A stretch of DNA of 64,000 nt, taken from positions 448,001-512,000 of the forward strand of contig CBDCVR010000015.1 of assembly GCA_965223155.1 (NCBI GenBank), read 5' to 3'. Every line of letters begins with the position of its first letter. Position 1 is the first letter of the stretch. Positions 6,326 to 61,896 of this stretch are shown here, one piece after another. This stretch comes from Candidatus Multivoradales bacterium (GTDB taxonomy: Bacteria; Acidobacteriota; Thermoanaerobaculia; Multivoradales; JAHEKO01). The position numbers were made by a program, and so were the translations under genes. The notes below the pieces were generated by a model. It was not told where the DNA came from. It did not search any database and worked only from the letters and a program-made list of their open reading frames with translations.

Positions 6326-6333
6326 GGTGACGA

Positions 6334-9306: not shown

Positions 9307-9309
9307 CGG

Positions 9310-10452: not shown

Positions 10453-10461
10453 CGCTGGCAG

Positions 10462-15549: not shown

Positions 15550-16283
15550 GCCCAGACCTCGTCGATCGTGCGGGCCAGGCCCGCCATCAGGCCTCGAGCC
15601 CTCGCCCGGAACTCGACGAGAGCCGGCACGGTCCAGGGCCGGGCCAGAGCCGCCGCCAGTACCCGGCCACGCGAGAGCCGCCCCCGTCGATCGACCGCCC
15701 GGGCCACGGGTCCGGGCAGCGACTCGTCGAGTGTGTCGCTCACGACTCGGAGAACAACGTAGGGCACTTCCGCCCGATTCGCCAGAGCCGCCCAGCGACC
15801 GCTCTCCATGTCCACGACCGCTGTCTCGCCGGCACCGAATCTCGCTCCCAGCTCGCGCTTGTCGCGGGCGCGGGCGACGATCGTCGGAGAGGTCACGAAG
15901 ACCCCTTCGCGGGCACCGGCCGCCAGAAGCGCCTGCCGGCGCTCGGGCCGCGGATCCGCGAGCTCGTGGCCTCCGACTCGGGGCAGGGCGGCTCCCGCCA
16001 GGGCGGCGGCGAGGACCCGGTCGCCGGTGGCAAGATCGGGAGTCAGAGCACCGGCCAAGCCGGTGAAGAGCACTTCCGAAGCCGAGGCCAGCGCCCGATC
16101 CAGACCCTGGGGCGCGGCCGCGGCTCCCGCCCCGGCCCGCACCATGAGCACGCTTCCCCCGGGGCACTCGCCCCGCCAGGCCGGCAAGCCCTCGATCCGA
16201 GCCGGCCTCAGGCCCCAATGCCCGACCAACGGCCCGGCCTCCTCAGGAAGGGCACAGACCACAGCCAGGTCCGCCGAGCTCAT
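15546..16283 (-). CDS. hpnG: Hopanoid-associated nucleoside phosphorylase/nucleosidase HpnG-like
   Basis: GLAGAL, VDMES, VLRVVSD (PNP/MTAN fold); in hpnH-hpnA operon. Confidence 0.8.
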   Translation of the reverse strand: MSSADLAVVCALPEEAGPLVGHWGLRPARIEGLPAWRGECPGGSVLMVRAGAGAAAAPQGLDRALASASEVLFTGLAGALTPDLATGDRVLAAALAGAALPRVGGHELADPRPERRQALLAAGAREGVFVTSPTIVARARDKRELGARFGAGETAVVDMESGRWAALANRAEVPYVVLRVVSDTLDESLPGPVARAVDRRGRLSRGRVLAAALARPWTVPALVEFRARARGLMAGLARTIDEVWA

Positions 16284-17284
16284 CGCTGCCCCGCGCCGGC
16301 CGTGACGTAGCCGTTCTCACGAAACCAGGCTACCGCCCGCCCGAGCGCTTCCCGGACCGGCGTTTGCGGCAGGCCCAGCTCCCGCACCGCCTTGCCGGCG
16401 TCGAAGTACATCCTGTGCCGGGCCATGCGCGCGGCCTCCAGCGAGACCCGCGGCTCGCCGCCGAAGACCCGCGCGCGGGCAGTGTCGAGGGCGCCGGCGG
16501 CGATCGCCACCGCGTGAGGCAAGCGCAAGCTCGGCGCCCGCAAGCCGGTGAGCTCTTCCAGCCGTCCGAAGAGCTCGGCCAGGGACAGGTTCTCGTTGCC
16601 CAGAATGTACTTCTCTCCGATCTCGCCCCTCTCCGCCGCGAGCAGATGCCCGGCAGCCACGTCTCGAACGTCCACGAAGTTGAGTCCGGTATCCACATAG
16701 GCGGGAGTCTTCCGGTTCAAGAAGTCAAGAACAATCCTCCCGGTCGCGGTCGGCTTGAGGTCGCCCTCGCCCACCGGCGTCGAAGGGTTGACGATGACCA
16801 CGGGCAGACCGCGGCCGGCCAGCTCCTCGGCGACGCGCTCGGCCAGGAACTTCGAGCGTTTGTAATGGCCGATCATGTCCTGAAACCGTACCGGAGTCGT
16901 CTCGCGGGCGGGAGAGCCGTCGGCGTGGAGCCCGAGGGCCCCCACCGAGCTCGTGTACACCACCCGCGAGACCGAAGCGTCGAGGGCCGCTTCCAGGAGC
17001 CGGCGGGTACCTTCCACGTTCGCCCGGTAAATGGCCTCCGGACGCTGGGCGAAGAGCCGGTAGTCGGCGGCGCAGTGATAGACCTCATCGACCTCCGACA
17101 GCGCCGGCCGGTAGCCCTCCGGCCTGAGCAGGTCGCCGACCACGACCTGGGCGGCGCTCGCGCCCAAGTTGCGCCGGTCGCTCGAAGGACGCACCAGACA
17201 GGTCACGTCCCTGCCCGCGCGCTCGAGCGCGCGCAAGAGGTGGCCGCCCACGAACCCGGTGGCTCCGGTCAGGAAGGCCTTCAT
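16280..17284 (-). CDS. hpnA: Hopanoid-associated sugar epimerase HpnA
   Basis: TGATGFVG, HCAADYRL, YKRSK, NPSTPVGEGDLKPTATG. Confidence 0.92.
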   Translation of the reverse strand: MKAFLTGATGFVGGHLLRALERAGRDVTCLVRPSSDRRNLGASAAQVVVGDLLRPEGYRPALSEVDEVYHCAADYRLFAQRPEAIYRANVEGTRRLLEAALDASVSRVVYTSSVGALGLHADGSPARETTPVRFQDMIGHYKRSKFLAERVAEELAGRGLPVVIVNPSTPVGEGDLKPTATGRIVLDFLNRKTPAYVDTGLNFVDVRDVAAGHLLAAERGEIGEKYILGNENLSLAELFGRLEELTGLRAPSLRLPHAVAIAAGALDTARARVFGGEPRVSLEAARMARHRMYFDAGKAVRELGLPQTPVREALGRAVAWFRENGYVTAGAGQR

Positions 17285-17318
17285 CCGCCGGCGCTCGCCT
17301 TCGTCGAGACCTGCGGCC

Positions 17319-18320
17319 TCAGCCCAACAGGTTCCAGGCGGCCATGCGCACCAAGTCGGCCGGCCGCCGCTTGAGGTCCGTCACCACCGAGGCTTCGAAG
17401 CCCGAATGCATGGCGCAGTTCTGGCAAAGCCGGTCGCTTCGGGACTCCCAGTAGCTCCAATCGGTCCCATTCCAGAACTCGTCCCAACTGTCGTAGTACT
17501 GCTTGCCGATGAGATAGCACGGCCCCTTCCAGCCCAAAGGCGTGAAGGTCACCGTACTCCAAGGAGAGCAGTCATAGTCGCGCAGGCCGGCCGCGAACTC
17601 CAGAAACATGGGCGTTGAGTGCAAACGGTACTTCTTCGAGATCCCGAGCACCTTGCGGAACTTCTCCTGGATGTCCCGCCGGGTCATGAAGATGTCCCGA
17701 TCCACCGACTCGTATTGGTAGCCGGGCGAGATCAGCATGCCGTCGACGCCCATCGCCGCCAGCTTCGCGCACAGCTCTTCGACCTCTTCGATGTCGGTCT
17801 CCTTGAAGACGGTCGTGTTGGTGACGACGTGGTACCCGCGCTTCTTCGACTCCCGAATCATCTCGATCGCCTTGTCGAAGACCCCGTCCCGAGCGCAGAC
17901 GTAGTCGTGAGTCTCGCGCATGCCGTCCAGGTGGACGTTGATCGACAGGCGCTTGTGCGGAGGGACCAAGTCGAAGACCTTCTCATCCAGAAGCAGCGCG
18001 TTGGTGCACAGGTAGATGTGCCGTCGGCGCTCGATGATGCCAGCGAGCAACTCGGGTAGCTCCGGATAGATCGTGGGCTCGCCGCCACAAATCGAAACCG
18101 CCGGCGCCCCGCACAGATCGACCGCCTCGAGGCAGGTAGCCACCGGCAGGCGATCCTTGAGCTTGCCGGTGTGGCGCTCCGTGGCACAGCCCAGGCACGC
18201 CAGATTGCAGGTATAGAGAGGCTCGAGCATGAGCACGAACGGATAGCGGCTCGTGCCCCGCCAGGCCTGCTTGGCCTGATGCCGGACCATGTCGGTGGTG
18301 ATGTGGAGCGGGAAGCGCAC
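17319..18320 (-). CDS. hpnH: Adenosyl-hopene transferase HpnH (radical SAM)
   Basis: YPFVLMLEPLYTCNLACLGC, GGEP, CTNA, PCYL, CQNCAMHSGFE. Confidence 0.93.
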   Translation of the reverse strand: MRFPLHITTDMVRHQAKQAWRGTSRYPFVLMLEPLYTCNLACLGCATERHTGKLKDRLPVATCLEAVDLCGAPAVSICGGEPTIYPELPELLAGIIERRRHIYLCTNALLLDEKVFDLVPPHKRLSINVHLDGMRETHDYVCARDGVFDKAIEMIRESKKRGYHVVTNTTVFKETDIEEVEELCAKLAAMGVDGMLISPGYQYESVDRDIFMTRRDIQEKFRKVLGISKKYRLHSTPMFLEFAAGLRDYDCSPWSTVTFTPLGWKGPCYLIGKQYYDSWDEFWNGTDWSYWESRSDRLCQNCAMHSGFEASVVTDLKRRPADLVRMAAWNLLG

Positions 18321-18377
18321 GGGTCGGAGTTAGCGGGTCGGAGTTCGTGGATCAGAGCAATCGGTCAGGGTTGCCGG

Positions 18378-20468
18378 TCAGGACACTCCCGCGCCGGAGC
18401 GGTTCCCGGCCCGGTCCAGCCGGCGGAACTCCGCCAGCGCCTGCAGCGGAAAGTAGACGGGGTAGTTGTGGTACTTCAAGTAGAAGACCTTCGGAAATCC
18501 GGTTCCGGTCCAGGCCTCGTCGGTCCAGGTGCCGTCCGGGAGCTGCCGTTCGAGCAGGTAGGCGATGCCCAGCTCAATCTCGGACCCGCGGTGGCCGGCG
18601 GCCAGCAGGCCCAGGAGCGCCCACGCGGTCTGGCTGGGCGTGCTCGTCCCCCTGCCTTTGAGCTCCGGATCCTCGTACGAGGCAAGCGTCTCACCCCATC
18701 CCCCATCGGGGTTTTGCCGAGACCGGATCCAGTCACGGGCGGCCACACCCCAGGGCTCGGCCACCAGGTCCACGCCGGCCGCCGCCAGGCCGGTCAGCGC
18801 CAGCCAGGTGCCGTAGAGGTAGTTGCAGCCCCAACGGCCGTACCAGGAGCCGTCGGGTTCCTGCATCGAGCGCACGAACCCGATCGCCCGTTCCATCCTC
18901 GCCTCGCTCGAATCGGCGCCCAGCGCGGCCAGCGCCTCCAGAGCCCGGCCGGTGATATCGACCGTCGACGGATCAATCATGGCATTGTGATCTGCAAAGG
19001 GAATGTAGGTCAGGATTTCCCGGTCACAGCCCCGATCGAACGAGGCCCAGCCGCCGTCCCGGTTCTGCATCGAGACCAGCCAGGCCCTGCCCCGATCGAT
19101 CGCGGCGGCCACCCCGTCTCCGCGACTCGAAGGCGCCGTCAACGCTAACGCCTTGAGCACTTCGGCGGTGTCGTCGCAATCGGGATAGAACTCGTTGGCG
19201 TATTCGAAGTACCAGCCACCCACCGGACCCTTCGGGTTGTTGTTGCGCCAATCGCCCGGACGCCGCACTTCGCGCGCCAGGAGCCACTCGGCCGCCCGCT
19301 CCAGAGCCCGGACCTCCGGATCGCCGTCGCCACCCGCGGGCGTCGAGCTGGCGAGCGCCGTCATCGCCAGAGCCGTGTCCCAGACCGGCGACTTGCATGG
19401 TTGGACCCGAAGGGTCTCGTCGTCCTCTATCTCGAGCTTCTCGAGCTCGCGGATCTGGGCGGCCAGCACCGGATGGCCCTGCGCGTAGCCCAAGCTCTCG
19501 AGAGCGATGATGGTGTTGACGATCGGCGGGAAGATCGCCCCCAGGCCGTCGCTCGCCTCGAGCCGCTCCAAGATCCAGCGCTCGGCGGCCTCGACCGCGC
19601 CTTGGCGGAGCGGATGGAACGGGACCGCCTGATAGGCCTTGATGAACCGGTCGATGGTGGTGAACAAACGGCCCCAGGCACGAGAGCGAAAACCTCCCAA
19701 GGCCGGATGGCGGATCGCCGCGGGACCGGCATCCAGCTCGTCCAAGGTGACCGGAAGCTCGCGGCGTGGCTTCCGTGCCCAGATGATGCTGAGGGGCACC
19801 ACGATCGCGCGCGACCAGGACGACATCTCGTACAGGTTGCACGGGAACCATCCGGGCAAGAGCACTAGCTCGGGCGGAACCGCCGGAGCCGCGTCCCACC
19901 GGTACAGGCCAAAGATCGAAAGGTAGATCTTGGTGAAGGAGTTCGCCGCTTCGAGCCCCCCGCCGTCGAGGATCGCTTCGCGAGCGCGGGTCATCGGCTC
20001 GGCGGCGGGATCGTCACCCATGAGCTTGAGGACCAGGTAGGCCTTGATCGAAGCGCTGACGTCGGCGGGGCCGTCCGGATAGAGGCTCCAGCCGCCTTCG
20101 GGCCGTTGCGCCCGGCGCAACGCCTCCGCCGCCTTGCCGACCTTGGGATCCTCACCGCGTCCCAGATAGACCTTGGTCAGGACGTACTCCGACTCCAAGA
20201 TAGAGTCGCCTTCCAGCCTGGCGCACCAATGCCCGTCCGGTTGCTGCTGGTCCAGGAGCGCTTGGCGGGCGGCGGCGATTGCGCGGTCGATCCGCGTCCA
20301 GAGGGCGTCGGCAGGCGGGACTTCGGTGGGGCTCGGCGCCGGCGTCACCGGAGCCGCCGGTACCGCCGGAGCAGACGGTCCGATGGCCGCAGCGCCGGCG
20401 GTACCCGTAGTGCCAGTGGCGCCAGCCGGGCCAGCGAACGACTTGGGTGGGCGAGGAAATCGCGACAT
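18378..20468 (-). CDS. shc: Squalene-hopene cyclase
   Basis: DCDDTA (DxDD), multiple QW repeats (QQPDGHW, QNRDGGW, QEPDGSWYGRWG, QNPDGGWGE), TGTGFPKVFYL; start uncertain. Confidence 0.95.
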   Translation of the reverse strand: MSRFPRPPKSFAGPAGATGTTGTAGAAAIGPSAPAVPAAPVTPAPSPTEVPPADALWTRIDRAIAAARQALLDQQQPDGHWCARLEGDSILESEYVLTKVYLGRGEDPKVGKAAEALRRAQRPEGGWSLYPDGPADVSASIKAYLVLKLMGDDPAAEPMTRAREAILDGGGLEAANSFTKIYLSIFGLYRWDAAPAVPPELVLLPGWFPCNLYEMSSWSRAIVVPLSIIWARKPRRELPVTLDELDAGPAAIRHPALGGFRSRAWGRLFTTIDRFIKAYQAVPFHPLRQGAVEAAERWILERLEASDGLGAIFPPIVNTIIALESLGYAQGHPVLAAQIRELEKLEIEDDETLRVQPCKSPVWDTALAMTALASSTPAGGDGDPEVRALERAAEWLLAREVRRPGDWRNNNPKGPVGGWYFEYANEFYPDCDDTAEVLKALALTAPSSRGDGVAAAIDRGRAWLVSMQNRDGGWASFDRGCDREILTYIPFADHNAMIDPSTVDITGRALEALAALGADSSEARMERAIGFVRSMQEPDGSWYGRWGCNYLYGTWLALTGLAAAGVDLVAEPWGVAARDWIRSRQNPDGGWGETLASYEDPELKGRGTSTPSQTAWALLGLLAAGHRGSEIELGIAYLLERQLPDGTWTDEAWTGTGFPKVFYLKYHNYPVYFPLQALAEFRRLDRAGNRSGAGVS

Positions 20469-20641
20469 CGAACGGCGCATTCTATGCAAGGTTCTCCGAA
20501 CGGTACGAAAGTCCTTCCTGCTTGCATGGTACGGACCAGGCTGGGGCCGAGATTCGAGGCGTCGGCCCGGGCTTCGAACCGGTCCGCGCCGCACCTTCCA
20601 CACACCGTCCCCCTCGTGTCCATTCAACATAGAATGGCCCG

Positions 20642-21520
20642 ATGCAGCGTCGTTTGGGAGCCTTCCTCGGGATTCTGGGCCTTTGCCTCGCTCCGATGCC
20701 GGCACCGCTTCACGCCGCCGAGGTAGAGGAGTTTCTGGCGGCCGGCCGCGAGGCCTTTGCAGCCCGAGCCTTGGGCCGGCAGGACATCCGAGCCGTCGCC
20801 GGCCCGATCGACACGGCGATCGAGTCCTTCGAAGCGGCGCTCGACCTCGATCCGGCGAGCTTTGAAGCCCGCGTCGCTCTGCTGAAGGCGCTCTTCTTCA
20901 AGGGCGAGCATGTCTTGACCGACCGGGACGCCAAGCTGGCTGTCTTCGAACGCGGCCGCGCCCTGGCGGAAGAGGGCATTCAGATCCTGACCCGCAACAC
21001 GGACCTCGATCCGACCGGCGCCAAGAACCGCGACTCTTTGGTCGCACACCTCGGGCACGAGCCGGACGCGGTCGGGGTCTATTTCTTCGCCGCCGTTCAC
21101 TGGGGCCTTTGGGGCCGGTACCGGGGCAAGATCGCGGCCGCGCGCAAGGGCGTCGCGGGCAAGATCCGGGACTACGCCGCGGTCGTTCTGGCCCTGGATC
21201 CAGACTACGAGTCCGGCGGCGGGCATCGCATCCTGGGCCGGCTGCACGCCGAGGCTCCCAAGCTGCCGTTCGTAACGTCGTGGATCGACCGCGACATCGC
21301 GATCCGGGAGCTCGAGCTGGCCCACCGCGCCGACCCTGAAGACGCCCTGTCACTCCTCTACCTCGCCGAGGCTCTGCTCGAGCACGACTCCTCGCGCCGG
21401 GCCGAGGCCCGGACGCTGCTCGAGAAGCTCGTCGGCAAGGCACCCAATCCCGAGTATCTGGTCGAAGAGCTCCAGGCCATCGCCGATGGCCGCGAAGTCC
21501 TGGCCAGAATCGGCTCCTGA
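20642..21520 (+). CDS. Exported TPR-like helical protein
   Basis: Signal peptide; helical repeats (LDLDPAS, LALDPDYESGGGHRILGRLH); divergent from shc. Confidence 0.7.
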   Translation: MQRRLGAFLGILGLCLAPMPAPLHAAEVEEFLAAGREAFAARALGRQDIRAVAGPIDTAIESFEAALDLDPASFEARVALLKALFFKGEHVLTDRDAKLAVFERGRALAEEGIQILTRNTDLDPTGAKNRDSLVAHLGHEPDAVGVYFFAAVHWGLWGRYRGKIAAARKGVAGKIRDYAAVVLALDPDYESGGGHRILGRLHAEAPKLPFVTSWIDRDIAIRELELAHRADPEDALSLLYLAEALLEHDSSRRAEARTLLEKLVGKAPNPEYLVEELQAIADGREVLARIGS

Positions 21521-52523: not shown

Positions 52524-53396
52524 ATGGCCTCGAACGGAGTCCCCTTCGTCCTCGAACCGGTCGGCGATGCCGATGGGATCCAGGGCCCAATCCACGGCGC
52601 GATCCACCTACCCGAGACCGGGGAGCCGCGCCCGGCGGTCGTCGTCTGCCACGGCTTCAAGGGCTTCATGGATTGGGGCTTTCACCCGTATCTTGCGGAG
52701 CTCATCGCCGCGCGAGGCTATGTGGTGGTGCGCTGGAACCAGCCGAGCTCTGGCATGCGCCCGGGCGACGAGCGGGTCACCGACCTCGAAGCCTTTCACG
52801 ATCAGACCGTGAGTGCCGACGTCGAGGCTCTCGTGCGCGTCCTGGACGTACTCGGTACGGACCTGGCCCCCGGCCGCTTCGACGGGCGGATCGCGCTTGT
52901 CGGTCACAGCCGAGGAGGGGGCATCGCGCTTCTCGGCGCCGCCAACCCACGCCAGGCGGACCGGGTACGGGCGCTCGTCACCTGGGCTTCTCTTGCCACG
53001 TTCGATCGGCTCGACGCCGCCGAGAAGGACGCTTGGCGGGAAAGCGGCATCCTGACCATCGTCAATGGCCGCACAGGGCAGCGGCTCCCGATCGGACTCG
53101 CTGCCCTGGAGGACTTGGAACGTAACGCCGAGGCCCTGGACCTCGGAGCCGCAGCGAGCCGCCGCACAGCGCCCTGGTTGATCGTCCACGGCACCAACGA
53201 TGAGACGGTCCAGGTTCGGGAAGCCGACCTCTTGAACGACTCGGGAACCGGAACCATCGAGCTCTTGCGAATTCCGGAGGCATCCCACACCTTAGGTGCG
53301 GTGCATCCGTTTCGCGGCCCTACGCCGCATCTCATTCAAGCCATGAACGCAACCCAGACTTGGCTTCGGCGCCATCTGCCGACCGGCCAGGCCTGA
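52524..53396 (+). CDS. Alpha/beta hydrolase
   Basis: CHGFKGFMDWG, GHSRGG, HGTNDETV, ASHTL (complete triad). Confidence 0.9.
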   Translation: MASNGVPFVLEPVGDADGIQGPIHGAIHLPETGEPRPAVVVCHGFKGFMDWGFHPYLAELIAARGYVVVRWNQPSSGMRPGDERVTDLEAFHDQTVSADVEALVRVLDVLGTDLAPGRFDGRIALVGHSRGGGIALLGAANPRQADRVRALVTWASLATFDRLDAAEKDAWRESGILTIVNGRTGQRLPIGLAALEDLERNAEALDLGAAASRRTAPWLIVHGTNDETVQVREADLLNDSGTGTIELLRIPEASHTLGAVHPFRGPTPHLIQAMNATQTWLRRHLPTGQA

Positions 53397-53420
53397 AACC
53401 TCGCACGATCGGAGCTCTCC

Positions 53421-53762
53421 ATGGACATGCATCTCGACGGAGTCATCTTCCAGGGCCACGCGGCCGAGTTGGGACGCCGGATACACCACCCCCACCCGCC
53501 TTTCGCGGTGCTGGACATTCGTCCGGACGACGACTTCCGGAAGGCTCGCGTTCCCGGCAGCCGGCGAATCGCGCCGGGCGGCCTCGACGCTCTGCCCGAG
53601 GGCACGGACTCATCGACCGAGTTCTTCATCCTGGGGTCCGGTCCGGACGGGCTCCGGCCGGTCTCGACGGCCCTGCGGAACCTGGGAGCCCGGCGAGTCG
53701 TCGAGGTCCCGGGCGGGCTCTTGGAGTGGGCGCGCGAAGGCTTGCCTGTGGAAGACGGCTAG
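53421..53762 (+). CDS. Rhodanese-like domain protein (no catalytic Cys)
   Basis: VLDIR, VPGS, PGGLLEW..EGLPV. Confidence 0.8.
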   Translation: MDMHLDGVIFQGHAAELGRRIHHPHPPFAVLDIRPDDDFRKARVPGSRRIAPGGLDALPEGTDSSTEFFILGSGPDGLRPVSTALRNLGARRVVEVPGGLLEWAREGLPVEDG

Positions 53763-53790
53763 CGCGGCCGTCTCACGAGCATTCGCCCTG

Positions 53791-53850
53791 ACAGGCCTGA
53801 ATCGTCCGGGTCAGGCCGCGTCAGGCCGCGTCAGGCCGGGTCAGGCCTGT
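53791..53850. repeat. 10-bp tandem repeat plus inverted copy (possible bidirectional terminator)
   Basis: tcaggccgcg tcaggccgcg tcaggccggg tcaggcctgt; acaggcctga at 53791 is the exact reverse complement of the last unit. Confidence 0.7.
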
Positions 53851-54137
53851 TCCAGGCCGTACAGCGCGAGGATTTCGACTCCGGCGCCCCGGAGCCGGTA
53901 GCGGACGGTCACCCGGCGCAACTCGGCGGTTTCGAGATCTTCCAGCCGAGGCACCGGCAGAACTGCCAGCACCTCGCCCGTTTCGGCGTCCGCGAGGTCG
54001 GGTACCGGGCGTTTCGAAAGCTCCTGCCGCAGGACGTCGACAAGATCGCGCTCGTCCAGGAATGCGGCACGCAGGCGAGCCCGGATCTCGTCCGGAACCA
54101 ACACCTCCAACCGGCCCGCGCTCGCGCCGCCGGTCAC
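53841..54137 (-). CDS. Hypothetical protein
   Basis: 98 aa ORF starting 1 nt after the enoyl-CoA hydratase stop; normal composition. Confidence 0.55.
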   Translation of the reverse strand: MTGGASAGRLEVLVPDEIRARLRAAFLDERDLVDVLRQELSKRPVPDLADAETGEVLAVLPVPRLEDLETAELRRVTVRYRLRGAGVEILALYGLEQA

Positions 54138-54138
54138 G

Positions 54139-54933
54139 CTACGACTCTCTCCAGTTGGGGGCCGCCTTGCTCTCGAGAAAGGAAGCGATGCCCTTGCGGC
54201 AATCCGGCGTCGCCCGGGCGGCGGCGTTTTCCCGGGCCGCCAGCTCCAAGGCCTCGTCCAACGAGCGGCCCAAGAGGCTCAGGAGCAACGCCTTGGTGCG
54301 GGCGATCGACTCCGAGCTCGCCCGCGTCAGAATCTCGGTGGCCAGGGCCTCCGCCGCCTCGCCCTGGGTGCCTTCGTCCACGACCCGGTTGACCAGGCCG
54401 ATCTCGAGCGCCCTCTCGGCGCTCAAGAAAGCCGGACTGAGAAGTACTTCTCGTAGGTCGGAACCGCGCAGGCGCAACGGTAAGAACGTCGCCACCAGCG
54501 CAGCCACGAAGCCGATCCGCACCTCGCTGTACAGGAAGCGGGCATCCCGAGACGCCACCACGAAGTCGTGGGCCGTGGCCAGGCCGCAGCCTCCGGCTAC
54601 GCAAGCTCCCTGCACCGCGGCCACGGTCAGCGCCTCCTGGCGAAGAACCGCCTCGAAAAGCGAGCGCAGGGTCTGCGAGTCCTCGAGGTTGCGGCCGGGG
54701 CCGGCATCGCGCAGTGAGCGCAGGTGATCCAGATCGGCGCCAGCCGAAAAATGCTTGCCCGCGCCCTCCAAGATGACCGCCCGGATCCCCTCGCCGCGCA
54801 GATCCCGGCTGTAAAGCTCGGTCAGCCCGGCGACGAGCGCCGGAGACAGAGCATTGGCCCGCTCGGGATCGTTGAGGCGTACGAACAGCAGGTCGTCCGC
54901 GCGGCGTTCCAGGAGGCTGCCGGGTGAGCTCAT
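54139..54933 (-). CDS. liuC: Enoyl-CoA hydratase, probably methylglutaconyl-CoA hydratase
   Basis: FSAGADL, AGGCGL, SEVRIGF, EIGLVN; liu context. Confidence 0.85.
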   Translation of the reverse strand: MSSPGSLLERRADDLLFVRLNDPERANALSPALVAGLTELYSRDLRGEGIRAVILEGAGKHFSAGADLDHLRSLRDAGPGRNLEDSQTLRSLFEAVLRQEALTVAAVQGACVAGGCGLATAHDFVVASRDARFLYSEVRIGFVAALVATFLPLRLRGSDLREVLLSPAFLSAERALEIGLVNRVVDEGTQGEAAEALATEILTRASSESIARTKALLLSLLGRSLDEALELAARENAAARATPDCRKGIASFLESKAAPNWRES

Positions 54934-54940
54934 CCGTTCG

Positions 54941-55309
54941 CTACCGGATCAGCGACCAGAACACGCTGAAGATGCCCAGAAAACCGATCGCCACATAGGC
55001 GACCGCGGTCCAGGGATTCGGATCGCCGCTCAGCATCTCGGCCGTGAAGCCCTGGACAAAAACGCCCAGCAGTCCCGCGCCGATGAACTGCAAGAAGACG
55101 CCGCGCCGGCTGCGTCCCGCCGACCGGAGCCGGTGGTAGGAGTACTGGACGTCCTTCTTGAGCACGATGGGATGCTCCCGATCGCGGGCGGCGCCGACCG
55201 CGTCACGGATCAGCCTCTCGCCGTAGCGGCGGGTGTACTGAATCGTGAGATCGCGGGCGTTCTCGTGAAAGTTGATCTCGGGGTCTTCGCCCAGCAGGGG
55301 TACGCGCAC
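54941..55309 (-). CDS. Small protein with histone-fold-like N-terminus and two C-terminal TM helices
   Basis: FHENARDLTIQYTRRYGERLIRDAVGAARDREHPIVLKKDVQYS resembles histone alpha2-L2-alpha3; two hydrophobic segments follow; GAGGTG RBS. Confidence 0.6.
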   Translation of the reverse strand: MRVPLLGEDPEINFHENARDLTIQYTRRYGERLIRDAVGAARDREHPIVLKKDVQYSYHRLRSAGRSRRGVFLQFIGAGLLGVFVQGFTAEMLSGDPNPWTAVAYVAIGFLGIFSVFWSLIR

Positions 55310-55312
55310 GTT

Positions 55313-56707
55313 CTACACCTCGTAACGCCGAACCGGTGTCGCCGGCAGCGGCAGTTCCTCCGCGACCTGCTCGACGGCTCGGCGCAAGATATCTCGCTCG
55401 GTCCGGTTCAGATCCCGGGGCAAGCGCACTCCTCCCGAGACTTGGACCATGGTCAGAAGGATACCCAACAAGACGACCATCGCCAGGCTGAAGAGCGTGA
55501 TCGCGACCACCTCGCTACGAGCCGCCCACGCCGCCGGCAGGATCCGGACGAAGAGCGCCGCGATGCCCGAGGCCATCAGCATCGAAAACAAGCTAAACAA
55601 CACGGCGGCCCGGTTGGTCGGAGCGCGCAGAAACAAGCTCACCTGCTCCCGAGCCTCGTCGATGCGCTCGCCCATCGACAGCTCGCTCGGATGCTCCCCG
55701 CGCCCGATGAGCGACAACAACGAGCCCACCAGGTCGCTCAAGTTGAGATCTGCGACCACTCCCTCCGTGGCCTCGATCTCGGCGCGCCGCTGGGCCAGCT
55801 CGTCCAGGATGATCTTCGAAGGCGGCGGCGGGTCTCCCACGAAATTGGCCATCTGCGAAACCCGGCAGCCGGCCTCGATCAGCGGGGTGACGTCCATTCC
55901 GGTTTCGACTCCCAGACTCTGGAACATGCTCGCCAACTCTTCGGTGGCGATGTTACCGACCGAGTGGCGAACCGTGATGGCGCCGCCGATACCGCCGATC
56001 GAGGCGTCGAAAACACGCACCCCGGCCCGGTAGGCGACGTAGGCGTTGGTCACTCCCAGACCGCGCCGGTCGTGCAAGTGCACGCCGATCGGATCGAGAC
56101 CGAGGGTCGGCTCCAAAGAGCCCACGGTGCGCTCGATATCGACCGGAGTCGCCATGCCATCGGTATCCGAAAGAGCGATGGTCTCGCAACCCATCTCGAC
56201 CAACCGGCGACAGATGGCTTCCACCCGAGCCACCGGCATCAGACCGTCCGGCTCGTTCTTGTCACGGAAGGCATACGAAAGGTATCCGCGCAGCCGGTAG
56301 CCATCTCCCACCGCGGCTCGAGCCACCTCCTCGGCCGCGTCCAGGGCCTCGTCGACGCTCATTCGAGTATTGGCGCGCGAATAGGCTTCGGAGGCGGCGA
56401 CGAAGAGCGCCACGGTGTCGACGCGTTCCGCCTTGCGCAACTGCTCGTAGTACTCGAGCGTCGGCGCCAGAGCCGCGATCTGGCCGTCGTAGGCCGGCAT
56501 GCGACGCAGCAGCTCCGCCGTGTCCCGCATCGCCGGCACCACCCGCGGGTTCACGAAGGAGCCCACCTCGATATAGGGAACGCCGGATCGGATCAGAGCC
56601 TCGACCAACTGCAGCCGGGCCTCGATCGGAATCGCGGCATGACGGTTGAGAATCTGCATGCCGTCGCGCAACGACACATCGCAGATCTTGACTTCCGGAA
56701 CCGGCAT
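55313..56707 (-). CDS. HMG-CoA lyase-like (DRE-TIM) protein with C-terminal two-TM extension
   Basis: DVSLRDGMQ, EVGSFVNP, SDTDG, HLHD, GNIATE; GCP motifs absent; ~170 aa extension with two TM helices. Confidence 0.85.
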   Translation of the reverse strand: MPVPEVKICDVSLRDGMQILNRHAAIPIEARLQLVEALIRSGVPYIEVGSFVNPRVVPAMRDTAELLRRMPAYDGQIAALAPTLEYYEQLRKAERVDTVALFVAASEAYSRANTRMSVDEALDAAEEVARAAVGDGYRLRGYLSYAFRDKNEPDGLMPVARVEAICRRLVEMGCETIALSDTDGMATPVDIERTVGSLEPTLGLDPIGVHLHDRRGLGVTNAYVAYRAGVRVFDASIGGIGGAITVRHSVGNIATEELASMFQSLGVETGMDVTPLIEAGCRVSQMANFVGDPPPPSKIILDELAQRRAEIEATEGVVADLNLSDLVGSLLSLIGRGEHPSELSMGERIDEAREQVSLFLRAPTNRAAVLFSLFSMLMASGIAALFVRILPAAWAARSEVVAITLFSLAMVVLLGILLTMVQVSGGVRLPRDLNRTERDILRRAVEQVAEELPLPATPVRRYEV

Positions 56708-56962
56708 CTCAGGTTGCCGAGTCCCGCGCCGATCCCTACAAGGGCGCGAGCCCGGACCTGCGATCTTACCCCGGCCCGCGTCTCGAACCGGCATGGCCGG
56801 CGCGCCGCGCCGGGGCACGATTCCAAGGTGGCAAGTGGCGAACGATCAGGACCTGGGGTCGAGGGCAAGACGGACGGACTCCTTCCTACCGTCGAGGCTT
56901 CCCACGGAGCGAAACCACAGAATCCTGGGAGCGTCCGGCCGGGCCCAGGCAAGAGCGGGCGG

Positions 56963-58627
56963 CTAGGTCTGAAACACGCCAGTACGGAATTCCGGCAGCT
57001 CGGGATTCGCCGCCGCCGCCGCCAGCGACCGCGACAGCACGTCCCGGGTCTCGGCCGGATCGATGATCGCGTCCACCCAGAGCCGCGCCGCCGCATAGCG
57101 CGGGTCCATGGCGTCCGCGTAGCGCTTCTGTATGCGCTCCAGGAGCTCGGCTCGTTCGGCCTCGCCCAGCTCGTCGCCGCGGTTCTTGAGCTGAATCGAG
57201 AGCAAGGTCTTGGACGCTTGCTCGCCGCCCATCACGGCGATCGCCGCCGAAGGCCAAGCGTAGACGAACCGAGCTCCGTAGGCCTTGCCGCACATGGCGT
57301 AGTTGCCGGCGCCGTAAGAGTTGCCCACGAAGACCGTGATCTTGGGCACGACCGAGTTGGCGACGGCGTTGACCATCTTCGCGCCGTCCTTGATGATGCC
57401 GCCGCGCTCGGCCCGGCTGCCAACCATGAAGCCGGTCACGTCCTGCAGAAACACCAGCGGGATGCCCTTCTGGTTGCAAAGCTCGACAAAGCGGGCACCC
57501 TTGTCGGCCGAGTCCGAGTAGATGACGCCGCCGATCTGGAGCTCGCGGTCTGCCTGACCGGTACCGGTCTTGCGCCGCACGATGGAACGTTGGTTGGCGA
57601 CGATGCCCACCGCCCAACCGTCGATCCAGCCGGTGCCGCACAGTAGAGTCTGGCCGTAGTTGGCCTTGAACTCGTCGAACTCGCCTCCGTCCAGAAGCCG
57701 GAGCAGCAGCTCGCGGCCCTCGTACGGCCGGGTACGGTCGATTGGCATGACGCCGTAGAGCTCGTCGGACGGCCGTCCCGGCGGTTGCGGCTCGCGCCGC
57801 GCGAAGGGAGCGGTCTCAGAGCGCGCCAGTTGGGCGAACTGACGACGGATGGCTTCCAGGCAGGTGCGGTCGTCCGGGTGCCGGTGATCCACGACGCCCG
57901 AAACATCCGCCTGCACCAGCGCTCCGCCCAGCTCTTCGTTGTCGATTTCCTCGCCGATGGCCGCCTTGACCAGATGCGAGCCGGCCAGGAAGATCGATCC
58001 AGTGGTCTCGACGATATGGGACTCGTCGCTCATGATCGGCAGGTAGGCACCGCCCGCCACGCACGGCCCCATAACCGCCGCGGACTGGAAGATCCCGGCC
58101 GCGGACAGGCGGGCGTTGTTGTAGAAGGCGCGGCCGAAGTGCTCGCGATCCGGAAAGATCTCGTCCTGCATGGGCAGGAAGACGCCCGCCGAGTCCACGA
58201 GATACACGACAGGCAGACGGTTTTCGAGGGCGATCTCCTGGGCGCGCAACACCTTCTTGCAGGTGAGCGGAAACCAGGCGCCGGCCTTGACCGTGGCGTC
58301 GTTGGCGACGACCACGGCGTCGCGTCCGGCGATGGCTCCAATTCCGACCACCACGCCCGCCGCGGGGGCGCCACCGTATTCCGAATAGAAGCCGTGCGCC
58401 GCCCACAGGCCGAGCTCCAAGAAGGGGGTGTCCGGATCGCACAGGACGGCGATCCTCTCGCGGGCCGAGAGCTTGCCCTTGGCCGCCTGCCGGGCGTGCC
58501 GCTTGGCCCCGCCGCCCTCGCGCAGCTTGGCCTCCTCGTGGCGCAGCGCCTCTAACGCTTCACGCCAGTGGCTCGACCTGGCCTCGAAGGTCTCGTCCGC
58601 GTCGATCCTGCTGGTAAGAACGCTCAT
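56963..58627 (-). CDS. liuB: Methylcrotonyl-CoA carboxylase beta subunit (acyl-CoA carboxyltransferase)
   Basis: ANDATVKAGAW, DSAGVFLPMQDEIFPD, CVAGGAYLP, GAGNYAMCGKAY, ARLWVD. Confidence 0.9.
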   Translation of the reverse strand: MSVLTSRIDADETFEARSSHWREALEALRHEEAKLREGGGAKRHARQAAKGKLSARERIAVLCDPDTPFLELGLWAAHGFYSEYGGAPAAGVVVGIGAIAGRDAVVVANDATVKAGAWFPLTCKKVLRAQEIALENRLPVVYLVDSAGVFLPMQDEIFPDREHFGRAFYNNARLSAAGIFQSAAVMGPCVAGGAYLPIMSDESHIVETTGSIFLAGSHLVKAAIGEEIDNEELGGALVQADVSGVVDHRHPDDRTCLEAIRRQFAQLARSETAPFARREPQPPGRPSDELYGVMPIDRTRPYEGRELLLRLLDGGEFDEFKANYGQTLLCGTGWIDGWAVGIVANQRSIVRRKTGTGQADRELQIGGVIYSDSADKGARFVELCNQKGIPLVFLQDVTGFMVGSRAERGGIIKDGAKMVNAVANSVVPKITVFVGNSYGAGNYAMCGKAYGARFVYAWPSAAIAVMGGEQASKTLLSIQLKNRGDELGEAERAELLERIQKRYADAMDPRYAAARLWVDAIIDPAETRDVLSRSLAAAAANPELPEFRTGVFQT

Positions 58628-58676
58628 CCCCGGCTGAGGACGATATCAGCGTCCCAGGCCCTGCTAGCATTCCAAC

Positions 58677-59348
58677 GTGCGGATTCGGATCCTGGCCTTC
58701 GCGACCGCCGCCGAGGCGCTTGGTGGCCGCGAACACGACCTCGAGCTTCCGGACGGCGGCACCGTGGGCGATCTCCTCGAGCGCCTGGCGGGCCAGGCGC
58801 CCGAGCTGGCTGAGCTCTCCTCGCGGCTGGCGCTCGCCATCGACGGCGAGCTGGTGGGACCGGAAGCGGCGCTTACTGACGGCTGTGAGCTGGCCCTCCT
58901 ACCGCCGGTCTCCGGCGGCGGCCCCAGGCTGGTACGCGAGCCGATCGATCCCGCCTCGATCTTTCAGCCCAATCCCGCCTGCGGCGCCGAGGTGGTGTTT
59001 CTCGGGCGCGTGCGCGATCACTCCTCCGGCCGCGCCGTGGTCCGCATCACCTACGACGGCTACGAAGCGATGGCCGACCATGGACTCGACCGCATCGCCC
59101 GGGAGCTGACCCGGGACGGAGTCGAAGTCGAGATCGTTCACCGGCTGGGCGAGGTCGAGGTCGGCGAGGCCAGCGTCGCCATCGCGGCCCGCTCCGCCCA
59201 CCGCGAAGAGGCTTTTGCCGCTTGCCGGCGGGCGCTCGAACGGATCAAGAGCGAAGTTCCAATCTGGAAGCTCGAGCACTACGCCGACGGCTCGGCCGCC
59301 TGGCGCGAGGAAGAACGCCTCGGGCCTACTCGACCACCTGAACTCTGA
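58677..59348 (+). CDS. moaE: MoaD-MoaE fusion molybdopterin synthase (MoaX-type)
   Basis: MoaD part ending LLPPVSGG, then MoaE FLGRVRD, HRLG, SAHR, VPIWKLE. Confidence 0.9.
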   Translation: MRIRILAFATAAEALGGREHDLELPDGGTVGDLLERLAGQAPELAELSSRLALAIDGELVGPEAALTDGCELALLPPVSGGGPRLVREPIDPASIFQPNPACGAEVVFLGRVRDHSSGRAVVRITYDGYEAMADHGLDRIARELTRDGVEVEIVHRLGEVEVGEASVAIAARSAHREEAFAACRRALERIKSEVPIWKLEHYADGSAAWREEERLGPTRPPEL

Positions 59349-60681
59349 CGTAGGCGGCAAGCCAACCGTCCAAGGCTTGCCAGTCGCGGTCCAGCGCGTT
59401 CCGGAGAGCTTCCCCGTCGGCGGGACCGCCGGCGGCGACGCCCGCGAGGAACCGGCGCAGCCCCCGGCCCAGGTCCGGCTGACTGCCGTCCAACAAGGAC
59501 CGGATCCAGAAGGAAGCCTGAGCGTAGCGGAGGCTTCGGGCCCGCTCGTCGCCGTCTGCGCTCCACTCGGAGCCGACCAGATCGGATAGGGACGGCAGTT
59601 CCTCTCGATCCAGGGCACGGCGGAGCTGGATCGCCGCGGCCCGCCCGCCCCGCCACTCGATCGAGTCCAACCGCCGCCTGTAGGCGCCGCCCAGACGATC
59701 CGCTTCGAGTACGCCGGTAGCGCCGATCCGCGCTTGCCCGAGATCATCAGCCAAGCCCTCCTCGAGCCACGCCGGCAAGGCCGGGCCCAAGGCGCGCCGG
59801 TTGAGCAGATGCACCAGCTCGTGCACCAGAGTCGCGGCGACTTCAGCGGCGGTCCGGTCCTGGACGTAGCTCGCCACGATGCCGGCATGGGCGAAGCCCG
59901 GCGCGTCCGGACGGGAGATGCCGTCGTTCGCCTCCTGGAACCGGGCATACGATTCGTAGCCGGCAAAGAGGACGATCGTCTCGGCCGGATGGCCGATCGG
60001 CTCGACGCCGTAGCCGGCGGCGTACGCCGGCTCGACCTGGCCCACGACCCGGTCGAGGTAGGCCAGGAGCTCGGCATCCCGAACGTCGGCGACGAGAGCG
60101 TACGGGCCGAGCGCGGTTACTGTGCCGGCGGTGCCGGTAGCACGGGCTGCCGGATCCAGCAGCCGGCGAGCCGCTGCCAGAAGATCCGGGTCGGCGGGCC
60201 TCGCGGGAACCGGCAGCGGCGGGCTGGGCGCGCTTCCCAGCGGAGGCTCCGATCCCGCGGCCGGCTGCGGGAAGAGCTCGACCCAGGCTTCCAGATTCCG
60301 ATAGCCGACCCGGTACCAGGAGCCCCGGCGCTCCAGGACCGGCAGGTTGCTCGCCGCTTCGGTAGTCGCGAGCGGAGTCGTACCGGCGTCGGGGACCTGA
60401 AAGAGCGCGGAGTCCTGAGGAACCCAGACTCGGGGCCTCAGCTCGTAGCTTCCCGGAACGATCTCGTAGAGGATCTCGACGCCGGTCTCTTCATCCTCGA
60501 GCGAGGTCGCGGGAGCCGCCCGGTACCGCTCGGCCAGGCGTTCGATCCAGGGGCCCACGAGCGGCCAGCTCGCCGCCGTGCGCACGGCGGCCGCATCCGG
60601 AGCGCGCGTGATTCCGGCGAAACCGCCGGCCAGGCCCAAGAGCCCGAGCAGAACGCAGATTCCCAACGGATCCCGCCGCAC
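59326..60681 (-). CDS. Membrane-anchored protein with SH3-like region and HEXXH gluzincin domain
   Basis: N-terminal hydrophobic segment; WYRV...AWV; VHELVH...WLEEGLA; YAQA. Confidence 0.7.
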   Translation of the reverse strand: MRRDPLGICVLLGLLGLAGGFAGITRAPDAAAVRTAASWPLVGPWIERLAERYRAAPATSLEDEETGVEILYEIVPGSYELRPRVWVPQDSALFQVPDAGTTPLATTEAASNLPVLERRGSWYRVGYRNLEAWVELFPQPAAGSEPPLGSAPSPPLPVPARPADPDLLAAARRLLDPAARATGTAGTVTALGPYALVADVRDAELLAYLDRVVGQVEPAYAAGYGVEPIGHPAETIVLFAGYESYARFQEANDGISRPDAPGFAHAGIVASYVQDRTAAEVAATLVHELVHLLNRRALGPALPAWLEEGLADDLGQARIGATGVLEADRLGGAYRRRLDSIEWRGGRAAAIQLRRALDREELPSLSDLVGSEWSADGDERARSLRYAQASFWIRSLLDGSQPDLGRGLRRFLAGVAAGGPADGEALRNALDRDWQALDGWLAAYVRVQVVE

Positions 60682-60699: not shown

Positions 60700-61896
60700 T
60701 CAGTAGCGCGGCATCGCTGGATCCACCTCGCGGCTCCAAGCGTCGATCCCACCAGACAAATTCCAAACGCGATCGAATCCCTGGGCACGCAGGAAGTGAA
60801 CCGCCTGGGCCGAGCGAATGCCGTGATGGCAGTAGACGATCACCGGCCGGTCGCGGTCGATCTCCTCGAATCGTCCCGGGAGCTGGTCCAGCGGCAGCCA
60901 CCGCGACTCGGCCAGGCAGCAGACGTCGCGTTCGATCCGGTTGCGGACGTCCACGAGGTCGAGTCCCTCGCCCGCCTCCCGCCACGAGGCCACCTGGCGC
61001 ACCGTGACGTCGAAGCTCTCGAGGTTCAATTCGGATAGGTCAGCACTGGCGGCCCTCTCCGGCGCTCCGGACAACTCCTCGGGTTCGCACGCCGCGGCCG
61101 AGTTCTCGAGAGTGGTTCGGGTCGGGGCATCGCCGCAGATCGAGCACTCCGGATCCCGGGGCAGCCGCAATTCCCGGAAGCCTCCCTTGAGCGCGTCGAA
61201 AAGCAGCAGCCTGCCGATGAGCGGCTCGCCTTCGCCCAGAATCAGCTTGATCGCCTCGCTGGCCTGGAGCGAGCCCACGATCCCCGGAAGAACGCCCAGA
61301 ACGCCGGCTTCGGCACAGGACGGGACCGCGCCCGGTGGCGGCGGCTCCGGGAACAGGCACCGATAGCAAGGGCCGCCTTCGGCGCCGAACACCGAGACCT
61401 GGCCCTCGAACCGGTAGATCGATCCGTACACATTGGGCCGGCCGGTCAGAACGCAAGCGTCGTTGACGAGATAGCGCGTCGAGAAATTGTCGCTACCGTC
61501 GACCACGAGATCGAACCGGGCGAAGAGGTCGAGCGCGTTGGCTGCGTCGATTCTCACGGACACCAGCTCGACCTCGACGTGGGGATTGATCTGGGCGATC
61601 CGATCACGCGCGGCCTCGACCTTGGGCCGGCCGACGTCGCTCGAGGAATAGAGGATCTGGCGCTGAAGATTCGACTCGTCCACCCGGTCGAAATCCGCCA
61701 CGCCCAGGCGGCCGACGCCGGCCGCGGCCAGGTAGAGCGCGGCCGGAGAGCCCAGTCCACCCGCGCCGACCAGGAGCACGCTGGCTCGTTTCAAGCGCAG
61801 CTGTCCCGAGCGGCCGACCTCGGGCAGGATCAAGTGCCGGCCGTAGCGACGCTTCTCGGCCTGGGTCAGCTCATCGGCAACCGGCACCGTCACCAC
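60700..61896 (-). CDS. moeB: MoeB/MoeZ adenylyltransferase with C-terminal rhodanese domain
   Basis: RYGRH, GAGGLGSP, SNLQRQ, CYRC, SCAEAGVLG, CSIC, VYCHHGIRS. Confidence 0.95.
   Translation of the reverse strand: MVTVPVADELTQAEKRRYGRHLILPEVGRSGQLRLKRASVLLVGAGGLGSPAALYLAAAGVGRLGVADFDRVDESNLQRQILYSSSDVGRPKVEAARDRIAQINPHVEVELVSVRIDAANALDLFARFDLVVDGSDNFSTRYLVNDACVLTGRPNVYGSIYRFEGQVSVFGAEGGPCYRCLFPEPPPPGAVPSCAEAGVLGVLPGIVGSLQASEAIKLILGEGEPLIGRLLLFDALKGGFRELRLPRDPECSICGDAPTRTTLENSAAACEPEELSGAPERAASADLSELNLESFDVTVRQVASWREAGEGLDLVDVRNRIERDVCCLAESRWLPLDQLPGRFEEIDRDRPVIVYCHHGIRSAQAVHFLRAQGFDRVWNLSGGIDAWSREVDPAMPRY

Follow-up and report, generated by a model that had tools for sequence, protein, structure and literature searches.

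Gene organization of the locus

We analyzed a 64,000-nucleotide (nt) stretch of the genome of a Candidatus Multivoradales bacterium (contig CBDCVR010000015.1, positions 448,001 to 512,000; called the window below). Its gene P0001 encodes a divergent homolog of 3-hydroxy-3-methylglutaryl-coenzyme A (HMG-CoA) lyase that lacks the loop cysteine of that enzyme and carries two predicted transmembrane (TM) helices. The gene lies on the minus strand among neighbours read in the same direction. Lengths are given in amino acids (aa), and ORF stands for open reading frame.

56963..58627, minus strand: carboxyltransferase of the methylcrotonyl-CoA carboxylase (MCC) beta type, upstream of P0001 (Pfam Carboxyl_trans, E 1e-137)
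55313..56707, minus strand: lyase-like gene P0001, ATG start, 464 aa, stop codon at 55313-55315 (ORF and translation)
54941..55309, minus strand: partner gene P0002, 122 aa, GTG start 3 nt after the lyase stop
54139..54933, minus strand: enoyl-CoA hydratase, downstream, a candidate 3-methylglutaconyl-CoA hydratase (Pfam ECH_1, E 8.7e-38)
53841..54137, minus strand: 98-aa ORF, 1 nt after the hydratase stop, no family match

Along the minus strand the order was carboxyltransferase, a 255-nt gap, P0001, a 3-nt gap, P0002, a 7-nt gap, the hydratase and the 98-aa ORF. The last is possibly the fifth and final gene of the operon; weak tblastn matches to it were detected in three of the loci compared below (L003, L004 and L027). 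An alternative GTG start of P0001 at 56818 is possible and would add 37 residues, and the starts of the orthologs agree with the ATG.

The catalytic barrel of P0001

55823..56707, minus strand: TIM-barrel domain, residues 1-295 (AlphaFold2 [AF2], Foldseek, phmmer)
56261..56266, minus strand: codons of Arg148-Asp149, in place of Gly173-Cys174 of the first GCP motif (alignment)
55979..55981, minus strand: codon of Ala243, the counterpart of catalytic Cys266 in human HMGCL (alignment to 2cw6)

Residues 6-279 of P0001 matched the Pfam family HMGL-like (E 4.4e-38), and its top NCBIfam model was HMG-CoA lyase NF004283 (225.2 bits). The closest solved relatives were the HMG-CoA lyases of P. aeruginosa, human, Brucella, Bacillus and Acinetobacter (E 1.5e-43 to 3e-36), with 2ftp as the best match (phmmer, E 1.5e-43). 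The AF2 model, which rests on a 110-sequence alignment, had a mean predicted local distance difference test score (pLDDT) of 83, mostly above 90 in the barrel. Target-normalised Foldseek TM-scores of the barrel were 0.91-0.94 against 2ftp, 3mp5, 2cw6 and 1ydn and 0.86 against 6nds (Acinetobacter), and isopropylmalate, homocitrate and citramalate synthases and DmpG-type aldolases scored lower.

The available text of two papers gives R41, E72, Y167 and C266 as the catalytic residues of human HMGCL and D42, H233, H235 and N275 as its metal residues (PMC6941031; PMC3435538). By residue alignment, seven of these eight were retained in P0001: R41 as R14, D42 as D15, E72 as E47, Y167 as Y142, H233 as H210, H235 as H212 and N275 as N252. 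The eighth, C266, was A243. The preliminary description of this DNA had named a lyase homolog that kept RDG, HLHD and GNIATE and lost both GCP motifs, and the alignment agreed with it in every detail. RDG (R14-D15), HLHD (H210, H212) and GNIATE (N252) were all found. In the alignments to 2ftp and 2cw6, GGIGGAITVRHSVGN paired with GGLGGCPYAxGAxGN of the solved lyases and SYAFRDK paired with SCALGCPY, so that R148-D149-K150 replaced the human G173-C174-P175 motif. R14, D15, E47, H210, H212 and N252 were invariant in the 110 aligned sequences and Y142 was conserved in at least 90%; among 75 orthologs, 135 of the 295 barrel columns were at least 97% conserved. P0001 therefore has the barrel, the four metal ligands and the arginine, glutamate and tyrosine catalytic residues of an HMG-CoA lyase.

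HMG-CoA lyase is a textbook enzyme whose loop cysteine is treated as essential. Roberts et al. reportedly found in 1995 that mutating Cys266 of the human enzyme lowered kcat by about 10^4. Cys9 of P0001, invariant in the 110-sequence alignment, was considered as a relocated catalytic cysteine and set aside: its site is several residues down strand beta-1, and it also occurs in some cysteine-bearing lyases.

A cysteine-less subfamily

Relatives of P0001 were drawn from a search of 5.8 billion proteins, and the best 120 were analyzed. The closest came from Thermoanaerobaculia/Acidobacteriota assemblies, and the database labels were either 'hydroxymethylglutaryl-CoA lyase' or 'hypothetical protein'. 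No cysteine was present at the Cys266 column in 119 of the 120, and F-R-[DE] replaced G-C-P in nearly all. The exception, P0084 (308 aa, on a 1264-nt contig), shared about 75-80% of its residues with P0001 as far as residue 237 and then continued with the cysteine-bearing GGLGGCPFA, probably because assembly joined two sequences into a chimera at the conserved GG[IL]GG stretch.

An alignment-based genome scan found 78 loci, and a scan with the single protein gave none. Because the cysteine-less family supplied the scan patterns, the proportions among the loci are biased:

Acidobacteriota clades A, S and N: 30 of the 78 loci, loop Ala, Ser/Thr or Asn
Usual FGCPYE / GGLGGCP type: 22 of 78, loop Cys
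Actinomycetota: 19 of 78, loop Ser, 18 of the 19 also with Ser in the first motif
Planctomycetota with AFQ[DE] and a longer loop: 6 of 78, loop Ser
L042 (Dehalococcoidia, Chloroflexota): 1 of 78, loop Asp

Three clades were distinguished within the Acidobacteriota:

Clade A, including P0001: GGIGGAITV[RA]HS, two membrane helices
Clade S: GG[IV]GG[ST][KR]AV, 408-463 aa, two membrane helices
Clade N: GGLGGNKIV, 303-335 aa, no hydrophobic helix

A quick maximum-likelihood tree of 59 rows took in the window, 9 proteins from databases and 49 of the 78 loci. The Planctomycetota FQ[DE] sequences together with clades A, S and N split from the cysteine-bearing and actinobacterial sequences with 100% support in the Shimodaira-Hasegawa-like approximate likelihood ratio test (SH-aLRT). 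Clades A, S and N were each monophyletic, and the tree did not settle the branching order among them. The subfamily has DT-D-G or DT-N-G at the end of strand 6, whereas the cysteine-bearing enzymes have DT-I-G, and it differs from them also by a two-residue insertion after RDGxQ. Judged by sequence, P0001 is a member of an undescribed HMGL subfamily without the cysteine, present in Acidobacteriota (Thermoanaerobaculia) and in Planctomycetota. A literature search, with most subscription journals outside its reach, retrieved no description of a bacterial HMG-CoA lyase that lacks the cysteine or spans the membrane.

The six Planctomycetota loci (L031-L034, L038 and L041) carried AFQ[DE] where the usual type has FGCP, and their loop was 4-7 residues longer. 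The Actinomycetota loci (L039, L040, L043, L045, L047-L051, L053, L055-L058, L060, L061, L064, L070 and L071) came from Ilumatobacteraceae, Acidimicrobiia and Conexibacter. Their loop read GGLGGSPFA, the first motif was FGSPYE in 18 of 19, HLHE stood instead of HxHD in 18 of 19, and an MCC-beta-like carboxyltransferase was observed about 5 kb off in several. With this serine clade, the 'essential' cysteine has been lost in nature a second time, independently.

Operon context of the cysteine-less lyases

The best solved relative of the carboxyltransferase was the MCC beta subunit of P. aeruginosa (3u9r, E 1e-160). Geranyl-CoA carboxylase beta matched at 3e-104 and the classical propionyl-CoA carboxylase beta chains 1vrg and 6ybp at about 1e-79 or weaker; 9tps, a chain named propionyl-CoA carboxylase beta, matched at 9e-154. 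Carboxylase, hydratase and lyase catalyze consecutive steps that turn methylcrotonyl-CoA into acetoacetate plus acetyl-CoA. With an MCC-beta-type gene upstream and an enoyl-CoA hydratase downstream, P0001 has the gene context of an HMG-CoA lyase. No second HMGL-like gene was found among the 59 ORFs of the window.

Neighbourhoods were compared by tblastn of the window proteins against the loci. In clade S the carboxyltransferase lay directly upstream in 6/6 loci (L024-L028 and L030) and the hydratase directly downstream in all four with a visible downstream flank, and in clade N the hydratase was divergently upstream in 5/5. Among the 19 clade-A loci, the hydratase followed the partner gene in seven and the carboxyltransferase was directly upstream in five; in one more (L006) it lay 5.6 kb upstream. 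The remaining 12 had neither gene in their flanks, which extended up to 7 kb per side and were shorter in some. A wider synteny was common to the three clades (a MoaD-MoaE fusion, a rhodanese, an alpha/beta hydrolase and a GcvT-like gene), and each assembly was present once in the locus list. With these shared neighbours, the synteny and no assembly repeated, the three clades resemble positional orthologs rather than paralogs.

Cysteine-bearing lyases were found in the same setting. Those of three Planctomycetota loci (L035-L037) directly adjoined a hydratase and a carboxyltransferase, and in an Ignavibacteria locus (L044) both genes lay about 2.5 kb upstream of a cysteine-bearing lyase. The cysteine-less gene thus takes the place in the operon that belongs to cysteine-bearing lyases in other phyla.

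The untranslated gap of 255 nt (56708-56962) between the carboxyltransferase and the lyase is long for an operon. An Rfam scan of 53000-59500 found no RNA family, and a scan for promoters and terminators gave signals at background level.

The predicted membrane-spanning extension

55613..55822, minus strand: helical linker, residues 296-365 (AF2 helices 298-315, 323-334 and 345-361, low to moderate confidence)
55541..55612, minus strand: predicted TM helix 1, residues 366-389 (hydropathy 2.26; AF2 helix)
55439..55516, minus strand: predicted TM helix 2, residues 398-423 (hydropathy 2.89; AF2 helix)
55316..55438, minus strand: Arg-rich C-terminal tail, predicted cytoplasmic, helix 435-451, six K/R in residues 424-445 (AF2)

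The linker begins within a conserved GDPPPPSK motif (residues 291-298). In 19-residue Kyte-Doolittle windows, residues 369-387 had a mean hydropathy of 2.26 and residues 400-418 a mean of 2.89; the short loop LPAAWAAR joins the two helices. The topology is likely N-in, hairpin, C-in, because the CoA-using barrel must be cytoplasmic.

No Pfam family matched residues 296-464. Among the best 120 relatives, 78 clusters were full-length homologs (444-514 aa, 65-82% identity). Both hydrophobic helices were present in all 78 and in 19/19 orthologous clade-A loci, which are separate genome assemblies and include contigs of 1.9-6.8 Mb. Across 75 orthologs, mean column identity was 0.83 in the barrel, 0.70 in the linker, 0.82 in each TM helix and 0.58 in the tail; the extension is under purifying selection. 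The extension of about 170 aa with two TM helices noted in the preliminary description was thus confirmed by hydropathy, by the AF2 model and by its conservation.

We also considered that the extension might be an artefact, whether through a lost stop codon, through faulty assembly that fused two genes or through a wrongly called ORF. The chimera-like P0084 shows that faulty assembly happens in data of this type. The same architecture, however, recurred in the 78 clusters from several databases and in the 19 independent assemblies, and the purifying selection on the extension contradicts an artefact. The coding pattern of P0001 was also the usual one (GC3 0.82 against GC2 0.47, in a window of 68% GC), and the GC3 fits coding sequence. 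The preliminary description had held that absence of the extension from all orthologs, as after a lost stop codon, would tell against it; all 78 full-length clusters and all 19 clade-A loci have it, and we give the artefact practically no credence.

A search for stand-alone copies of the extension returned 17 short proteins, 15 of which lay on contigs of at most 1.3 kb and resemble cut genes, giving no evidence of a free-standing module. A protein-atlas comparison of the extension gave no score above 0.79. Profile-profile comparison of the partner protein with the extensions of clades A and S, and of these with each other, found no homology (probabilities below 2%).

The downstream partner protein

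A partner profile was run on all ORFs of at least 60 codons in the 78 loci and the window. The partner gene was directly downstream of the lyase in 20/20 clade-A sites (the window and 19/19 loci) and in 0/59 loci with other lyase types, where the best match had an E value of 0.03 or worse. The gap between lyase and partner, measured in 17 of the 19 loci (L006 and L015 were left out), was at most 11 nt or an overlap in 14; longer gaps were found in L004 (37 nt) and L016 (179 nt). The two genes were still together in the 12 clade-A loci whose flanks held no carboxyltransferase or hydratase, and the other neighbours differed in the six of these that were examined (Nramp/Rrf2, an AI-2E transporter, DUF3604 and others). 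Clade S had its own two-helix extension and no partner, and clade N had neither. Lyase and partner behave as one unit, because the genes stay together even off the operon. This linkage bears out the functional tie with the downstream TM protein that the preliminary description had proposed, and it suggests binding. A complex prediction run without controls on lyase residues 296-464 and the partner, with separate alignments, scored 0.00, which carries no weight for or against binding.

The AF2 model of P0002 (pLDDT 68) had a long helix at residues 11-43, a loop, a short helix at 51-63 and membrane helices at 68-92 and 99-121; the head, formed by the first two helices, had a pLDDT of 55-72. The hydropathy windows lay at 70-88 and 103-121. 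P0002 itself had no match in Pfam or NCBIfam, and Pfam on the partner family gave subthreshold hits to MCM_lid, the LonB lid, DUF378 and 8xMP. Its close homologs formed 58 clusters, all of 89-135 aa, two of them named 'histone H3/H4' by a source. The membrane part was strikingly conserved: invariant in 52 sequences were Q74, G77-A78-G79-L80-L81-G82, Q86-G87-F88, E91, P97, W100, Y105, G109, G112, W118-S119 and R122. When 1.84 billion representatives were searched with a profile, 129 proteins reached an E value of at most 1e-3. Nearly all of these were of similar length (115-140 aa) and matched end to end, so that the partner's architecture defines a wider family. Representatives P0180-P0303 of this wider family made up about 120 clusters of 115-140 aa with a histone-fold-like head, two membrane helices and the consensus GGALxGAFxxGFxxEL.

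The Pfam histone-fold family CBFD_NFYB_HMF was a subthreshold hit in 7 of 55 distant partner relatives. A 101-member profile compared with the PDB listed mostly histone-fold chains (H2B, H3, HMfA, NF-YB, NC2 beta and viral histone doublets; E 1.5e-4 to 0.1) over alpha2-L2-alpha3, with designed helical proteins and AAA+ lid domains mixed among the matches. Foldseek with the low-confidence monomer model of P0002 gave nothing better than E 1.3, and the protein atlas returned unnamed clusters at scores of 0.91-0.94. The matches at the N-terminus are weak but consistent and suggest that the head is histone-fold-like, without helix alpha-1, in line with the preliminary description, which had called the downstream protein histone-like. 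Schwab et al. (2024; PMC11390915), in the text available, describe a 'transmembrane histone' category that is very diverse, without DNA-binding residues and uncharacterised. The C-terminal TM helices of this category are present in P0002, by hydropathy and in the AF2 model.

Other genes of the window

Near the operon lie a fused MoaD(ThiS)-MoaE protein, syntenic in clades A, S and N, and a ThiF/MoeB protein. A mevalonate cluster (8269-13858) and hopanoid-type genes (16280-20705) lie 35-45 kb from the lyase operon, and a UbiD-family gene lies near one end of the window.

58677-59348, plus strand: fused MoaD(ThiS)-MoaE protein
60700-61896, minus strand: ThiF/MoeB protein with a C-terminal rhodanese domain
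8269-9306, minus strand: diphosphomevalonate-decarboxylase-like gene
9310-10452, minus strand: GHMP kinase
10462-11733, minus strand: HMG-CoA reductase
12758-13858, minus strand: polyprenyl synthetase
16280-17284, minus strand: NAD-dependent epimerase/dehydratase, among the hopanoid-type genes
17319-18320, minus strand: radical SAM protein with DUF3463
18378-20705, minus strand: squalene-hopene cyclase
3541-4032, minus strand: flavin reductase-like gene
4505-6469, minus strand: UbiD-family decarboxylase, 654 aa, with an unusually long N-terminus

Proposed function and alternatives

We favour, with moderate confidence, the reading that P0001 is an active, membrane-anchored lyase of leucine/isovalerate catabolism with a proton donor other than cysteine, mainly because the cysteine-less gene fills the operon slot of cysteine-bearing lyases. 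P0001 would then perform the lyase step of the three-step route that turns methylcrotonyl-CoA into acetoacetate plus acetyl-CoA. Its cytoplasmic barrel would bind a divalent metal through D15, H210, H212 and N252, the substrate would be polarised by R14, E47 and Y142 as in known HMG-CoA lyases, and HMG-CoA, or a very close analogue, would be cleaved at the cytoplasmic face of the membrane. The loop cysteine is thought to protonate the acetyl-CoA enolate. As it is absent here, the proton would come from elsewhere; candidates are D149 and D183, which are subfamily-specific acidic residues, H248 in the low-confidence loop 245-249, and water. By the same reading, and with the mevalonate cluster in the window, the genome would both make and cleave HMG-CoA.

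The hairpin (366-389/398-423) would hold the enzyme at the cytoplasmic membrane and, given the co-inheritance of the two genes, would most likely pack against the helices of the partner in a complex. The partner, which would be transcribed together with the lyase, would have its head in the cytoplasm. Histone folds generally dimerise, and the histone-fold-like heads may do so as well; known lyases are dimeric, which head dimerisation would match. The membrane location might serve co-localisation with other membrane-proximal steps or the handling of products, with the reaction unchanged. Anchoring itself appears not to be needed for catalysis, because clade N has no anchor. A bolder version would join the lyase and P0002 as obligate partners in a membrane complex, with a 'transmembrane histone' as a subunit of a metabolic enzyme and C-C cleavage by the barrel through a non-cysteine proton donor. 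The invariant polar residues in the partner's membrane helices (Q74, Q86, E91, W100 and Y105) would then have a role beyond anchoring and might move acetoacetate or an ion, or gate the enzyme. We regard this version as unlikely, and if true it would give the transmembrane histone category its first functional context.

Several observations weigh against an active HMG-CoA lyase. P0001 has alanine at the Cys266 equivalent, and its NF004283 score of 225.2 lies under the curated cutoff of 246. Three active-site loops are altered jointly (GCP to R-D/E, DT-I-G to DT-D-G, and the CPYA loop). By the tests applied, the hydratase was only a generic crotonase, with no specific identification as a methylglutaconyl-CoA hydratase, and no MCC alpha or isovaleryl-CoA dehydrogenase gene was found within the window. 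In the related Planctomycetota clade, neighbourhoods were variable, and a hydratase was a neighbour in one of the five loci examined (L031). The remodelled loops and a score under the curated cutoff make a shifted substrate or reaction of the cysteine-less subfamily a serious alternative, although we think it rather less than probable. The substrate could be another 3-hydroxy-3-alkylglutaryl-CoA, a citramalyl-CoA-type thioester or HMG-CoA of the opposite stereochemistry. It could also be a hydrophobic acyl-CoA derived from isoprenoids, and a membrane site would make sense for such a compound. The insertion after RDGxQ, the fully supported split from the cysteine-bearing and actinobacterial sequences and the 12 clade-A loci with neither carboxyltransferase nor hydratase in the fetched flanks point the same way. 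An (R)-specific HMG-CoA route exists in nature and uses an unrelated enzyme, according to the text available of PMC6689899. The mevalonate and hopanoid genes of the window would suit an isoprenoid-derived substrate, but they are distant from the operon, and the carboxyltransferase is far closer to MCC beta than to geranyl-CoA carboxylase beta. The three genes also encode consecutive steps of a known route, and cysteine-bearing lyases share these operon partners. Altered chemistry, which the preliminary description had offered as one possibility, is plausible from the joint change of the three loops, be it through a different proton donor or through a shifted substrate.

The other possibility offered there was a membrane-tethered acyl-CoA sensor, which we take to mean a catalytically dead regulator that signals with the small membrane protein. 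Loss of the cysteine, the membrane hairpin and a partner head resembling a DNA- or protein-binding fold would be consistent with such a role. Across 110 sequences, however, the metal-binding residues and three of the four catalytic ones vary little or not at all, Pfam detected no output or DNA-binding domain, and the operon codes for enzymes, not regulators. Soluble clade-N orthologs also lie in this neighbourhood, where no further lyase gene was seen. With the catalytic set conserved and soluble orthologs in the same slot, a dead sensor is very improbable, and this part of the preliminary description was not supported.

Comparison with known systems

The nearest known system is HMG-CoA lyase itself (EC 4.1.3.4; LiuE/YngG/HMGCL; 2ftp, 1ydn, 1ydo, 2cw6, 3mp3). 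P0001 shares its fold at about 30-32% identity, its metal ligands, its arginine, glutamate and tyrosine residues and its operon partners (MCC beta and enoyl-CoA hydratase). It differs in Ala243, in the R-D that replaces the first GCP motif, in DTDG for DTIG, in the 170-aa two-helix extension and in a dedicated small membrane partner. The arrangement of lyase and partner appears, from the literature search, not to have been described for this family. A built-in hairpin and a strictly co-inherited partner are unusual for a catabolic enzyme of the soluble type, and neither database label fits present knowledge of these proteins. If the favoured reading is true, a cysteine-less subfamily in a normal operon would show that the chemistry is possible another way, and it would offer enzymologists a natural test of the role proposed for the cysteine.

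The statement in the preliminary description that HMG-CoA lyases are soluble holds in general, with the exception of human HMGCLL1 (er-cHL), which the available text of PMC6941031 describes as associated with the endoplasmic reticulum (ER) membrane. It is weakly membrane-bound, through an N-myristoylation motif thought to mediate the ER association, and sits where HMG-CoA reductase acts (PMC6941031). The likeness is a membrane-held lyase where the mevalonate pathway also uses HMG-CoA, and the window encodes an HMG-CoA reductase. In contrast to P0001, HMGCLL1 has a myristoylation motif, keeps the catalytic Cys281 and has no partner protein. The parallel is a functional analogy in which the anchors do not share descent.

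The oxaloacetate decarboxylase Na+ pump (OadA/OadB/OadG) joins a DRE-TIM enzyme to a small membrane subunit within a membrane complex. The sequence of OadA is weakly related to that of P0001 (E 1.7e-8 to 2nx9). In P0001, however, Pfam detected no biotin carrier or association domain, and the anchor lies within the enzyme chain; no pump subunit gene was found beside P0001 in the window or the loci. With no biotin domain and no pump gene nearby, P0001 does not match a complex of this type.

P0002, for its part, resembles the transmembrane histone category as described in the available text of PMC11390915: it is small, with a histone-fold-like head, C-terminal membrane helices and no obvious DNA-binding role. 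It differs in lacking helix alpha-1, and the likeness is one of description, not accession. That text mentions no enzyme partner for the category, and the pairing with a lyase gives these uncharacterised bacterial transmembrane histone-fold proteins a concrete context.

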